Assembly (NCBI GenBank): GCA_964534105.1
Contig: CAZHOF010000002.1
Coordinates: forward strand, 1-33,618
From: an uncultured Candidatus Saccharibacteria bacterium
GTDB taxonomy: Bacteria; Patescibacteriota; Minisyncoccia; UBA6257; GWB1-50-10
DNA: 33,618 nucleotides
Direction of reading: 5' to 3'
Shown one piece after another: positions 5,904 through 7,733 of the stretch. A program made the position numbers and the translations under genes. Position 1 is the stretch's first letter. The number at the start of each line of letters is the position of its first letter. The notes beneath the pieces are model-generated. The model was given only the letters and a program-made list of their open reading frames with translations, ran no database searches and was not told the origin of the DNA.

Positions 5904-6158
5904 AATATGCAACACACAAATCCCCCGGATTAAGACATATGGGGGTGGCAAGAAAACTCTACCGGAAAAGAAGGGAAAAGTGAAGCTCCATACTTATGGA
6001 GCGGAACCCCTCACCGAGAGCCCTGGAAACCTTCACTTCGCGTTCAAAAATAATATATGGATAAGTAATAGATGCAAGGAAAAAACGGCAACCGGGGCTT
6101 TCCAGTGTGCGGGTGAACCCCGTATCTCTAACAACCAGCCATCAGTTATGTTGCTCTA

Positions 6159-6186
6159 TTGACATTTACTGATAATATGATATAAT
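6159..6186 (+). promoter_or_regulatory. consensus sigma70 promoter TTGACA-N16-TATAAT
   Basis: TTGACA at 6159-6164 and TATAAT at 6181-6186. A perfect match to both hexamers is unlikely by chance in 33 kb. The track's ATG at 6185 sits inside the -10 box, so the real start is downstream. Confidence 0.75.
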
Positions 6187-6227
6187 GAGCAAGCACATTA
6201 AGAAACTGGGAAATAAGCGCAAGCGTC

Positions 6228-6243
6228 TTCCTGATATCAGGAA
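6228..6243 (+). promoter_or_regulatory. 16-nt perfect palindrome TTCCTGATATCAGGAA in the 5' UTR, overlapping the SD region
   Basis: Read directly. It lies between the predicted TSS (about 6193) and the AGGAAAGGAAGG SD. It could be an operator or an SD-sequestering hairpin. Confidence 0.4.
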
Positions 6244-6256
6244 AGGAAGGTACGAG

Positions 6257-6658
6257 ATGTTCAAGAAAGCATGGGCGTATCTGGTGCTGGTGAATCGTAA
6301 GTACAACAACTCGCTGTTCGCCGGGCTGGTCGTCGGGCTGCTCATCGGGCTGGGCGCCGGGCTGGCCATCGGGTTGACCTACGGGCTGGCCTACGGGCTT
6401 GTCAACGTGCTGATCCTCGGGCTGTGCACCGGGCTTGTCGCCATACTGGCCGTCGGGCTGGGTGCTGGGTTGAGCGTCGGGCTGGGCGCCGGGCTGGGCA
6501 TCTGGCTGGGCGCCGGGCTGGGCACAGTAACCTCAATAGGCGTCCTGTATCTCGCCCAGGTTATCGGCTGGATGCCAATCGTCGCAATCGTCCTTGTCTC
6601 CACTCTCACCGTGTGGTACCACCGCCGGAAGAAGAGTGTAGCGATGACGTCGGGCTGA
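6257..6658 (+). CDS. glycine-zipper repeat membrane protein (133 aa), unknown family
   Basis: Start is ATG at 6257, preceded by GGAAAGGAAGG-tacgag. The protein is MFKKAWAYLV.., then 17 consecutive G-L-x-x tetrads, then a hydrophobic segment, then HRRKKSVAMTSG. It has its own promoter and terminator. Confidence 0.7.
   Translation: MFKKAWAYLVLVNRKYNNSLFAGLVVGLLIGLGAGLAIGLTYGLAYGLVNVLILGLCTGLVAILAVGLGAGLSVGLGAGLGIWLGAGLGTVTSIGVLYLAQVIGWMPIVAIVLVSTLTVWYHRRKKSVAMTSG
6323..6523 (+). repeat. about 17 tandem 12-nt units (consensus nnnnnnGGGCTG) encoding (G-L-x-x)n
   Basis: GGGCTG/GGGCTT/GGGTTG recurs every 12 nt. Leu is invariant in all 17 units and Gly is present in 14 of 17. Confidence 0.85.
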
Positions 6659-6664
6659 CCATCA

Positions 6665-6700
6665 AGAGCCCTTAGCAATATCATGCTGAGGGCTTTTTCT
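6665..6700 (+). terminator. intrinsic terminator after the glycine-zipper gene
   Basis: AGAGCCCT..(AGCA-loop-TGCT)..AGGGCTTT followed by TTCTTTG. Confidence 0.6.
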
Positions 6701-6744
6701 TTGATCTCGCTTTAAGCATATATTACCAGTTACCATTCTCTACT

Positions 6745-6778
6745 TAAAAAAGAGGGGCAGTCATAACGACAGCCCCTC
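6745..6778 (-). terminator. intrinsic terminator for the 175-aa orphan gene
   Basis: The minus strand reads GAGGGGCTGTCGTTATGACTGCCCCTC followed by TTTTTT, 12 nt after the stop codon. Confidence 0.7.
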
Positions 6779-6789
6779 AAAGATGGAAA

Positions 6790-7317
6790 TTATGGGTGGA
6801 GAAGAAGACGCTCCGAGTACCGCTGGCGACGGCGCCTTTTCGCGCTGCCGTCTCCGTGCCGGCGCCTCTTGCGATCTTCCGAGCTCGGCGGTCCTCCACG
6901 AATCACCCAGACGGCGACAATCTGACAAGCGGCGCTCCGTATACCGGCACCGCTCAACGCGCTTGGAATACGCAACACAGGGGGGCTTTCCCGAACAGGT
7001 CTCATGGAAACACCCCGCGAGCCGTTCCGATGGGCAACATCTTCCAGAAAAATCCCTTCCCGGACCCCGATCTTGAGGACAAGAGGAATTTCTCGTCCCC
7101 CGTCCATGACCCAGCCCAAGCGATGCTCTACCCCGGGCGTATCCCGTTGCCACTCCGAGGCAAAAATCCTGGGGTGTCTCAGTACGCCCTCCTGACGCGC
7201 CCCCCCGCTGCTGTCACCACCGGAATTTATTTTCTCCCGTTCCGATGATGCAATCTCGCGGAGCACTGCTTCCGCCCTCCCTCCGGGCATAGCGGAAATG
7301 ACCCGTACCACATCCAT
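6790..7317 (-). CDS. hypothetical protein, 175 aa, GC-rich, Arg/Lys-rich C-terminal tail
   Basis: Start context is TTTCAAGGAGGGttgaagcATG, with a dedicated terminator downstream. The protein ends ..SSEDRKRRRHGDGSAKRRRRQRYSERLLLHP. Long ORFs on both strands make the frame choice less certain. No family recognised. Confidence 0.5.
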   Translation of the reverse strand: MDVVRVISAMPGGRAEAVLREIASSEREKINSGGDSSGGARQEGVLRHPRIFASEWQRDTPGVEHRLGWVMDGGREIPLVLKIGVREGIFLEDVAHRNGSRGVSMRPVRESPPVLRIPSALSGAGIRSAACQIVAVWVIRGGPPSSEDRKRRRHGDGSAKRRRRQRYSERLLLHP

Positions 7318-7484
7318 GCTTCAACCCTCCTTGAAACTTTTCGCGTTGATCCCGGCGACAAAAAGGAAACTCAGGTAAAATAACACCTCCTTTCCTGCGT
7401 ATGCATTTTATGTTAAAGAACTCTGACCGGATTTCCGGCCTGGAGATTATCAGCCGAAAGCGGACAATCTTCAACCCGGAAATG

Positions 7485-7512
7485 AAACCTCCCGTTTGAA
7501 ACGGGAGGTTTT
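7485..7512. terminator. 13-bp-arm hairpin AAACCTCCCGTTT-g-AAACGGGAGGTTT with flanking A/T tracts (bidirectional)
   Basis: Read directly. On the minus strand it follows the 28-aa ORF by about 25 nt and is followed by TTTCATTTCC. Confidence 0.65.
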
Positions 7513-7535
7513 GGTATTTCTTTCTCTTTTCTAAA

Positions 7536-7622
7536 CTAACACTTACCACAACCTCCCCCACTGTACGGAATAAGGACGACGGTAACGGAGAAAAGAACGT
7601 GGGAAAATAGTTTCATTTTCAT
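7536..7622 (-). CDS. 28-aa hydrophobic micro-protein MKMKLFSHVLFSVTVVLIPYSGGGCGKC (C-terminal CxxC)
   Basis: ATG at 7622 lies 4 nt downstream of a TATATT -10 box (leaderless geometry). The stop is TAG at 7536-7538, followed by a hairpin terminator. It is below the ORF-track cutoff. Confidence 0.5.
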   Translation of the reverse strand: MKMKLFSHVLFSVTVVLIPYSGGGCGKC

Positions 7623-7626
7623 TTCT

Positions 7627-7655
7627 AATATAGGAAGATTTCGGAAAAAGGTCAA
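7627..7655 (-). promoter_or_regulatory. near-consensus promoter TTGACC-N17-TATATT driving the 28-aa ORF / short RNA
   Basis: On the plus strand, ggtcaa is at 7650-7655 and aatata at 7627-7632, with a 17-nt spacer. Confidence 0.65.
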
Positions 7656-7687
7656 GGGCGTGTCTATGAAAAAGAGGTAGAACCTTG

Positions 7688-7713
7688 AAATGACTCAACC
7701 GGTTGAGTCATTT
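7688..7713 (-). terminator. 26-nt perfect palindrome AAATGACTCAACC/GGTTGAGTCATTT downstream of the DUF5671 gene
   Basis: Read directly. It begins about 20 nt after the stop at 7734. The A/T tracts are part of the arms. Confidence 0.5.
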
Positions 7714-7733
7714 CCAATATCCCTAAATAAGCT

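Follow-up and report, generated by a model that had tools for sequence, protein, structure and literature searches.

The stretch of DNA analysed here, hereafter the window, comprises 33,618 nucleotides (nt) from an uncultured Candidatus Saccharibacteria bacterium (contig CAZHOF010000002.1 of assembly GCA_964534105.1), and we were concerned with the interval 5904–7733, which is the gap between the start codon of uvrB (ATG at 5906–5904, minus strand) and the stop codon of a DUF5671 gene (7734). On the minus strand of this interval a small open reading frame (ORF), a terminator and a gene for a protein of 175 amino acids (aa) follow each other, and these elements most likely constitute one conserved unit that is controlled by an attenuator and induced when translation slows. 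As judged from sequence, the leader appears to have the anatomy of ribosome-mediated transcription attenuation, a reading to which we assign a probability of about 0.65. The interval as a whole probably consists of two unrelated units, i.e. the leader with the 175-aa gene (7655–6746, minus strand) and a glycine-zipper gene (6159–6697, plus strand). What is new here is a probable regulatory element of a known kind that is attached to an uncharacterised protein family. An original prediction, made from the letters of the window, had described the interval as an accessory island with three independent transcription units. The promoters, repeats, palindrome, terminators and ORFs that it listed were all recovered at the positions it gave. 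However, its second and third units look like one regulatory unit, and the independence of the three could not be upheld because the promoter ascribed to the 175-aa gene itself scores only 9/12 and coincides with a covarying hairpin.

The elements of the minus-strand unit are, in the order of transcription:

7627–7655, minus strand: promoter of the leader transcript (TTGACC, 17 nt, TATATT; 10/12)
7536–7622, minus strand: leader ORF (upstream ORF, uORF) of 28 codons, MKMKLFSHVLFSVTVVLIPYSGGGCGKC, near-leaderless and ending in CGKC
7544–7559, minus strand: region 2, the antiterminator strand GGGGGAGGTTGTGGTA, inside the uORF and ending 8 nt before the end of the stop codon
7502–7515, minus strand: region 3, ACCAAAACCTCCCG, i.e. 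the 5' arm of the terminator plus an upstream extension, which pairs with region 2 or region 4
7486–7510, minus strand: attenuator terminator AACCTCCCG-TTTCAAA-CGGGAGGTT, then TTCATTTCC; -15.7 kcal/mol, with compensatory changes across eight leaders
7442–7472, minus strand: conserved hairpin P-a, overlapping the promoter-like site that had been assigned to the 175-aa gene
7425–7440, minus strand: conserved hairpin P-b, GGCCGGAAATCCGGTC, within the motif CCAGGCCGGAAA (helices 4 and 5)
7326–7332, minus strand: Shine-Dalgarno sequence AAGGAGG, 8 nt before the ATG of the 175-aa gene
6790–7317, minus strand: gene of the 175-aa protein with a basic C-terminal tail (examined through homologues, substitution rates and a structural model)
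6746–6778, minus strand: intrinsic terminator of the 175-aa gene, GAGGGGCTGTCGTTATGACTGCCCCTC then TTTTTT, conserved in the related loci L009, L012 and L014

The switch rests on a repeated sequence. Region 2 (GGGGGAGGTTGTGGTA) repeats the 3' arm of the terminator and is therefore complementary to its 5' arm with the upstream extension ACCAAAACCTCCCG. When the upstream sequence was shuffled 300 times with its dinucleotides preserved, no shuffle did as well as the resulting 2:3 duplex, whose predicted energy is -20.9 kcal/mol. With regard to the start of the uORF, its possible ATGs are situated 4 nt (first) or 10 nt (second) past the -10 hexamer of the TTGACC-N17-TATATT promoter, and an equivalent promoter is found 6–14 nt ahead of the uORF ATG in every related locus. 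The 28-codon ORF is best read as a near-leaderless leader ORF lying over a putative RNA switch. Of the leaderless 28-aa membrane peptide ending in CGKC that had been proposed earlier, the ORF, the CGKC ending and the near-leaderless start were retained, but not its status as an independent peptide gene.

To evaluate conservation, we compared the window with its nearest public relatives, which are metagenome contigs and metagenome-assembled genomes (loci are designated by L numbers, proteins by P numbers). The closest other species-level relative is L009, whose protein is 74% identical to the 175-aa protein. In L009, L012/L021 and L014 the homologous gene likewise has the small ORF and a terminator ahead of it. 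More distant relatives of the 175-aa gene occur on contigs titled Saccharibacteria, Patescibacteria group and Paceibacterota, and the leader-bearing ones among these loci show a sigma-70-like promoter, an ATG 6–14 nt past the -10 hexamer, an ORF of 25–35 codons and a terminator 20–30 nt past its stop codon. The leader-bearing distant loci are:

L017/L023: Saccharibacteria, long form of the protein (see below), leader layout present
L018/L019/L027: short form, leader layout present
L022: long form, leader layout present
L024/L025: long form, leader layout present
L026: gene truncated at the contig end, leader layout present
L029: Paceibacterota, short form, leader layout present

Altogether the order of promoter, short hydrophobic uORF carrying an antiterminator strand, terminator and gene was found in seven independent lineages of Patescibacteria, which differ in primary sequence and in neighbouring genes and whose distant homologues share about 30% protein identity. 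Fourteen of the 15 loci with enough upstream sequence had this layout, and an intrinsic terminator lay between the short ORF and the gene in all leader-bearing loci examined. In all seven lineages a uORF of 25–35 codons with a hydrophobic middle occupies the same place (18 codons in the frameshifted L014).

The complementarity recurs as well. In every lineage the best partner of the terminator 5' arm lies inside the uORF, 1–20 nt before the end of the stop codon. The observed duplex energy was reached by none of 300 shuffles in the window, L009, L012, L014, L017 and L023, by one in L022, two in L029, four in L026, nine in L024 and 7–36 in the L018 group. A Fisher combination with one representative for each of the seven lineages gave p = 6e-8. 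The antiterminator was assessed by these per-lineage duplex and shuffle tests in place of column covariation. The anatomy of the leader, its conservation and these complementarity statistics are direct observations.

The peptides encoded by the leaders behave differently from the RNA. From the small ORF to the main ATG, the DNA of the window and L009 is 92% identical, whereas the synonymous sites of the gene differ at 35%; the leader DNA is more conserved than the 175-aa gene itself. The leader peptides contain no run of one codon, consist of LIVFMWY residues to 41–59% (33% in neighbouring proteins), have almost no Asp or Glu, and are unrelated in sequence between lineages. In L014 (1942–2025) a 1-nt insertion in a T-run shifts the frame of the leader ORF, which stops at codon 19, so that the peptide has 18 residues and ends immediately ahead of the complementary strand; the best partner of the terminator 5' arm begins right at this premature stop. 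The RNA sequence GGGGGAGGTTGTGG downstream of the frameshift is retained, and the shifted frame would still read GGGCGAC / ...FIPHSGGGCGAC, like the window peptide. The frameshift is seen on a single contig and may reflect either a true mutation or an error of sequencing. Since L014 keeps the RNA in spite of the frameshift and the peptides are unrelated between lineages, the constraint appears to act on the RNA and on the position of the ORF rather than on the peptide.

These observations bear on the possibility that the small ORF is a gene in its own right, encoding a small hydrophobic membrane peptide (resembling a type I toxin or a holin, or acting as partner of the basic protein), with the 175-aa gene being expressed from its own promoter. 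The ORF does encode a hydrophobic stretch resembling a membrane helix and has a promoter and a terminator on its flanks, the 175-aa gene of the window has a 9/12 promoter-like site ahead of it, and a hydrophobic short ORF recurs beside the family in all lineages. The size of the peptide also equals that of type I toxins. On the other hand, the peptide sequences are unrelated between lineages, and L014 keeps the RNA after losing the frame; what is conserved is the overlap of the 3' part of the ORF with a strand complementary to the terminator, for which a separate gene has no need; the internal promoter-like site lacks conservation, its bases covarying as a hairpin; and there is neither an evident antisense-RNA partner nor a PADLOC match. 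We consider a free-standing peptide gene quite unlikely. The Cys-rich C-terminus had also raised the possibility of a ribosomally synthesised and post-translationally modified peptide precursor with its modifying enzyme; this candidate was ruled out, the Cys residues being present in the window group only. In addition, a 29–32-codon ORF antisense to the leader (window 7401–7499, plus strand; L009 3299–3388, minus strand) is common to both loci. Its conservation is most simply explained by that of the leader DNA, and we found no evidence for a gene.

Between the terminator and the gene, the leaders of the window and L009 contain a promoter-like site (7474–7446, minus strand; 9/12), which was the basis for assigning a promoter of its own to the 175-aa gene. 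The letters resembling the -35 and -10 hexamers are not conserved in L012 or in the L018 group, and the site coincides with hairpin P-a, which is kept by compensatory changes. The P-a helix (helix 3) has 13 pairs, five of which are changed on both sides, and 89% of its cells are paired. When the terminator, P-a and P-b were evaluated together in eight leaders, 89.8% of the cells were paired, compared with at most 53% when the partners were slid; eight pairs were changed on both sides, and none of 500 shuffles was as good. P-a and P-b are present in the window group and the L018 group but not in the short AT-rich leaders, and a motif related to P-b occurs in the leaders of L018/L019/L027 and, as CAGGCCGAA, in L022. 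A related observation is that the following motif lies past the attenuator terminator in three divergent lineages:

Window 7425–7445; L018 ~5910–5940; L019 ~5913–5940; L022 ~1105–1120: motif CCAGG(C/T)C(C/G)GAA(A/G)

P-a and P-b may add another level of regulation, for instance as binding sites of the basic product. In a different account, the switch is real but is set by a factor acting in trans (a protein, possibly the basic product, or a small ligand), the short ORF being incidental. The conserved extra hairpins between terminator and gene in three lineages, the basic tail of the product, which would suit RNA binding, and the lack of a run of regulatory codons would all be in keeping with such a factor. 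Against this, a frame of 25–35 codons crosses region 2 in seven lineages, AT-rich ones included, for which chance is an unlikely explanation, and P-a/P-b are missing in four of the seven lineages that still have the uORF and the switch. Control by a trans-acting factor seems rather unlikely to us.

The arrangement suggests the following mechanism of ribosome-mediated attenuation. A sigma-70-type promoter would start the transcript, and the 28-codon leader ORF would open almost at once. Region 2, in the last third of this ORF, would be available to pair with region 3 of the terminator about 25 nt downstream. A ribosome reaching the leader stop codon would cover region 2, so that regions 3 and 4 would form the terminator and most transcripts would end before the gene. 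If, instead, the ribosome lagged or stalled in the hydrophobic codons rich in Leu, Val, Phe and Ile (codons 5–18 in the window), region 2 would remain free and pair with region 3, the terminator would be blocked, and transcription would proceed through P-a and P-b into the 175-aa gene. The gene would be switched on by slow translation, for example as a result of scarce hydrophobic aminoacyl-tRNAs or of ribosome inhibition. Termination and read-through, as well as the signal sensed, are what we infer from the anatomy described above.

It should be underlined that several points weigh against ribosome-mediated attenuation. Leaderless translation in these organisms is an assumption. The leader peptides show no repeats of any one amino acid and are only 41–59% hydrophobic, and this hydrophobicity could partly be a by-product of pyrimidine-rich RNA. 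The 2:3 complementarity is weak or marginal in the L018 group (32–36 of 300 shuffles in L018 and L019), and several of the terminators end in imperfect T-runs (TTCATTTCC for the window, GTTATATGG for L029). Pairing between regions 1 and 2 was no better than in shuffled sequences in most lineages, so that a three-segment switch alone is supported. Column-based covariation was uninformative for the antiterminator, as the register of the alignment shifts between groups. The homologue in L028 has no leader and directly follows another ORF. Furthermore, the 9/12 site could give transcription independent of the attenuator in the window and L009, and the suggested nucleic-acid binding of the product is a weak guess from its basic tail.

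A bolder version would regard the uORF and the switch as a dedicated sensor of ribosome speed, responding to host-derived hydrophobic amino acids or to translation inhibitors and driving a Patescibacteria-specific family of RNA- or ribosome-binding proteins with a new fold, to which P-a/P-b would add a possibly autoregulatory layer in some lineages. We put this forward tentatively and regard it as doubtful. If true, these reduced, host-dependent bacteria would have their first described circuit for nutrient or translation stress.

With regard to the gene itself, the original prediction of a convergent, GC-rich ORF of 175 aa with an Arg/Lys tail and a terminator was borne out: the ORF occupies 7317–6790, has a GC content of 56–62% and is followed by a strong terminator (6778–6746). 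Its ratio of non-synonymous to synonymous substitutions (dN/dS) is 0.13–0.30, the differences being mostly at third positions, and homologues down to 46% identity hold the frame with indels of whole codons. By these sequence criteria the ORF is a real gene under purifying selection, and this coding selection was observed directly. We also considered whether 6790–7317 could be a structured non-coding RNA in which long ORFs arise from the rarity of stop codons in GC-rich DNA. The GC content exceeds that of the nearby DNA (about 48–50%), ORFs of 97–150 aa exist in other frames, and the folding z-score of the single sequence is -3.1. However, scans with Rfam (gathering threshold and E ≤ 10) and ARAGORN (tRNA/tmRNA) gave no match, a good Shine-Dalgarno sequence lies 8 nt before the ATG, and a profile retrieves 97 protein representatives whose alignment yields a confident fold. 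The substitution pattern and the frame-preserving homologues rule out a non-coding RNA, a reading to which we give hardly any credence. A hairpin with the Shine-Dalgarno sequence in its loop just before the 175-aa ATG was likewise dismissed, being confined to the window and L009 and not conserved.

A profile built from four close homologues retrieved 97 cluster representatives at E ≤ 1e-3, 31 of them at 1e-10, from a library clustered at 50% identity. The short forms of the family have about 145–220 aa and usually an Arg/Lys-rich tail, while the long forms (mostly 445–504 aa, range about 390–530) have in addition a conserved C-terminal region of about 300 aa, which may hold the catalytic or effector function of the family. 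This region (L017 5965–7371, P0010, P0014) carries the motifs GQWNRP, LHEF, SPFxFHxHAT, ERFYRLID, RLVLDSHFY, SGxEMxRYL and RNERLF, and it had no match in Pfam, NCBIfam or the PDB. Short and long members alike were without match in Pfam, NCBIfam, PADLOC and PHROGs, and a sequence search of the PDB with two family profiles and protein P0010 gave matches at chance level only. An AlphaFold2 model based on a 53-sequence alignment had a mean predicted local distance difference test score (pLDDT) of 86.7 and a predicted template modelling score of 0.77 (with four sequences only, the pLDDT was 38) and displays a core of mixed alpha/beta type, after which comes a long basic helix. Comparison of this model with the PDB and BFVD by Foldseek gave no convincing relative (best E 0.013–0.019, template modelling score below 0.35). 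This absence of known relatives is an observation. The few family members named at source are all "hypothetical protein" from Patescibacteria or Paceibacterota; on these few named records the uncharacterised family is apparently Patescibacteria-specific. The window protein and that of L009 are without a well-conserved G-W-x-D-R-x-G...P-Y-G segment, which P0003 and P0004 keep. As to activity, the basic tail suggests binding of nucleic acid (RNA or the ribosome) as the likeliest one for the 175-aa protein, a guess in which we have little confidence.

The second unit of the interval is transcribed from the plus strand and comprises:

6159–6186, plus strand: promoter of the glycine-zipper gene (TTGACA, 16 nt with a TG extension, TATAAT; 12/12)
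6228–6243, plus strand: perfect 16-nt palindrome TTCCTGATATCAGGAA in the 5' untranslated region, just upstream of GGAAGG (from 6245)
6257–6658, plus strand: glycine-zipper membrane-protein gene, 133 aa from the ATG at 6257, a lineage-specific insertion
6319–6523, plus strand: 12-nt tandem repeats encoding (G-L-x-x)n, 17.1 copies
6664–6697, plus strand: intrinsic terminator of the glycine-zipper gene, a 14-pair stem followed by a T-rich tail

The perfect TTGACA-N16-TATAAT promoter, the palindrome in the leader and the 17 G-L-x-x repeats that had been reported for this gene were thus all confirmed. The palindrome is a candidate operator or a candidate hairpin masking the Shine-Dalgarno sequence. 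A 157-aa reading starts at the ATG at 6185 and cannot be made from the 6159–6186 promoter, since this ATG is inside the -10 hexamer; the usable start is the ATG at 6257, which is preceded by the purine-rich, Shine-Dalgarno-like GGAAGG, and the 133-aa form is also called in several other assemblies. A Pfam scan of the 157-aa reading gave no family at E ≤ 1, the glycine-zipper models included, although the GxxxG-type periodicity itself is present. A multi-helix membrane protein is a plausible interpretation of this sequence.

None of the three products of the interval matched a family in Pfam, NCBIfam, PADLOC or PHROGs, in agreement with the original prediction that none belongs to a recognisable family. 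The designation of the interval as an accessory island holds for the glycine-zipper gene, which is absent in three related lineages, but not for a module of three genes. L009, L012/L021 and L014 keep the other two elements between DUF5671 and uvrB and have no glycine-zipper gene. In L009 about 70 nt follow the terminator of the 175-aa gene before the conserved sequence upstream of uvrB, the approximately 600 nt with the glycine-zipper gene being absent; in L012/L021 uvrB starts 79 nt past the homologous 175-aa-type gene; in L014 the gene is lacking at the homologous site. It is absent from all distant family loci too. Lack of co-occurrence elsewhere, which the original prediction had itself named as evidence against it, is what we see for this gene. 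The small ORF and the 175-aa gene, in contrast, are widely found together, as leader ORF, attenuator and gene and not as two independent units.

In L015/L020, a strain-level variant, the glycine-zipper gene is exactly 60 nt (five repeats) shorter and in frame, with otherwise identical DNA. Compared with window 6257–6658, L015 1959–2300 has a 60-nt in-frame deletion between CCGGGCT repeats, which is either a real polymorphism in repeat number or an assembly collapse. Because the gene is absent at the same site in L009, L012 and L014, and its repeat number varies between strains, it is interpreted from sequence as a lineage-specific gain, functionally unconnected to its neighbours. Alignment with L009 and L014 revealed neither a target-site duplication nor a mobile-element signature at the boundaries of the insertion. 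In database searches the sole close relative was the same gene in another strain, and the remaining matches were Parcubacteria proteins with GLxx repeats that had only the repeats in common (E 2e-4 to 2e-3).

The original prediction had also likened the three units, expressly as speculation, to modules of the toxin/immunity, holin-like or small defence type. What speaks for such a module is the general look of the proteins. The co-occurrence data contradict it, as the glycine-zipper gene is missing from related and distant loci that retain the rest, and family members have ordinary housekeeping genes beside them, which differ in every lineage. PADLOC gave no hits and PHROGs nothing significant for the three products and the family members, and the viral contigs scanned contained no relative of the 175-aa family. 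Nor is the setting that of a phage or holin locus, the neighbours being uvrABC, DUF5671, an hpf-like gene and VKOR. We found no support for the link and regard the module as very improbable. The window is a locus of Patescibacteria type, with uvrA, uvrB, DUF5671, an S30AE/HPF-like protein, VKOR and DUF5652 on the minus strand.

Some further features of the surrounding DNA may be mentioned. Upstream of uvrB (5907–6125, minus strand), about 220 nt of non-coding DNA are strongly conserved in L009, with the core in L014; there the distance to the uvrB ATG is greater by about 150 nt, and L012 lacks the segment. Within it lies a hairpin, GCTCC-loop-GGAGC followed by TTCACTTTTC, at 6002–5985, in which the varying loop length breaks the frame of an overlapping 25-codon ORF, and another hairpin (CCCCC...GGGGG) at approximately 5945–5922. 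The segment is a candidate small RNA or uvrB leader/attenuator and has no Rfam match. A perfect 22-nt palindrome, ATGACTCAACCGGTTGAGTCAT, lies at 7690–7711 between the DUF5671 stop codon and the leader promoter and is not found in L009; it may serve as a binding site for a protein or form a hairpin of terminator type, although a clear T-run is lacking. In L014 (473–1833) a gene for an 88-aa helix-turn-helix protein (MarR/HTH_24-like) and one for a 335-aa acidic protein (no Pfam match) are inserted between DUF5671 and the leader ORF, which adds a second indel, independent of the first, to this intergenic hotspot.

Gene regulation in Patescibacteria (the candidate phyla radiation) is very poorly understood, and a full-text literature search yielded no paper linking leader peptides or attenuation with this group. 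A leader-ORF attenuator in at least seven lineages would mean that classical coupling of transcription and translation is probably in use in these bacteria. It would also single out the orphan family as one whose importance warrants tight regulation, apparently by translation status. The attenuator offers a concrete route to the function of the family, and the element is compact enough to be tested in reporter systems. Moreover, the locus calls for caution in annotation: a small "membrane peptide" gene beside an orphan gene can turn out to act as a regulatory leader, and adjoining orphans need not be a module.

With regard to known systems, the glycine-zipper protein resembles the GLxx proteins of Parcubacteria (P0007–P0009) in its long arrays with Gly at every fourth position and its hydrophobic segments. 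The latter proteins, however, have a common N-terminal SRWWDIP region which the window protein lacks, and the similarity is therefore confined to the low-complexity repeats.

Type I toxins such as Hok, TisB, Fst and Ibs are small hydrophobic membrane peptides, and the leader peptide is like them in its size (about 25–35 aa) and its single hydrophobic stretch of helix length. It differs in that no antisense RNA partner is evident, the peptide is not conserved and is frameshifted in one lineage, and the ORF is always co-oriented directly upstream of one protein family, with an RNA switch over its 3' end.

Upstream ORFs that sense general translation stress or ribosome-targeting antibiotics include those of Bacillus bmrB-bmrCD and of the vmlR leader. 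The uORF upstream of E. coli topAI-yjhQ is reported to be of this kind (PMC12121999). The likeness to this system is that a gene is induced by stalling in an upstream short ORF without any requirement for an amino-acid-specific codon run; in the present case, however, no known resistance gene and no toxin-antitoxin gene lies downstream, nothing shows antibiotic responsiveness, and the putative switch is a plain pair of intrinsic terminator and antiterminator. In mycobacteria, leaderless polycysteine short ORFs are reported to act as cysteine-responsive attenuators (10.1101/834739). There too a leaderless short first cistron controls the downstream gene or genes, but the phylum is another one, and runs of Cys codons there stand against mixed hydrophobic codons here.

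The closest known kind of system is the leader-peptide attenuator of amino-acid operons. The window leader gave sub-threshold matches to Rfam Phe_leader (RF01859; cmscan, covering 7478–7623, E 0.22, 25.1 bits against a gathering threshold of 55) and to Pfam IlvGEDA_leader (PF08046; hmmscan, E 0.087, 12.9 bits against a cut-off of 25), i.e. far below both curated thresholds. In contrast to the classical cases (trpL, pheL, ilvL, hisL and leuL), one regulatory codon does not occur in a tandem run, support for the 1:2 pause hairpin is lacking, the uORF is leaderless or nearly so, and what would be controlled is the gene of an uncharacterised protein rather than a biosynthetic operon. Patescibacteria are generally held to lack most amino-acid biosynthesis. 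What the window shares with the classical attenuators is a promoter-proximal short ORF followed by an intrinsic terminator and a structural gene, a peptide rich in Val, Leu, Ile and Phe like IlvL, and a terminator whose 5' arm can pair instead with the segment covered by the translating ribosome.

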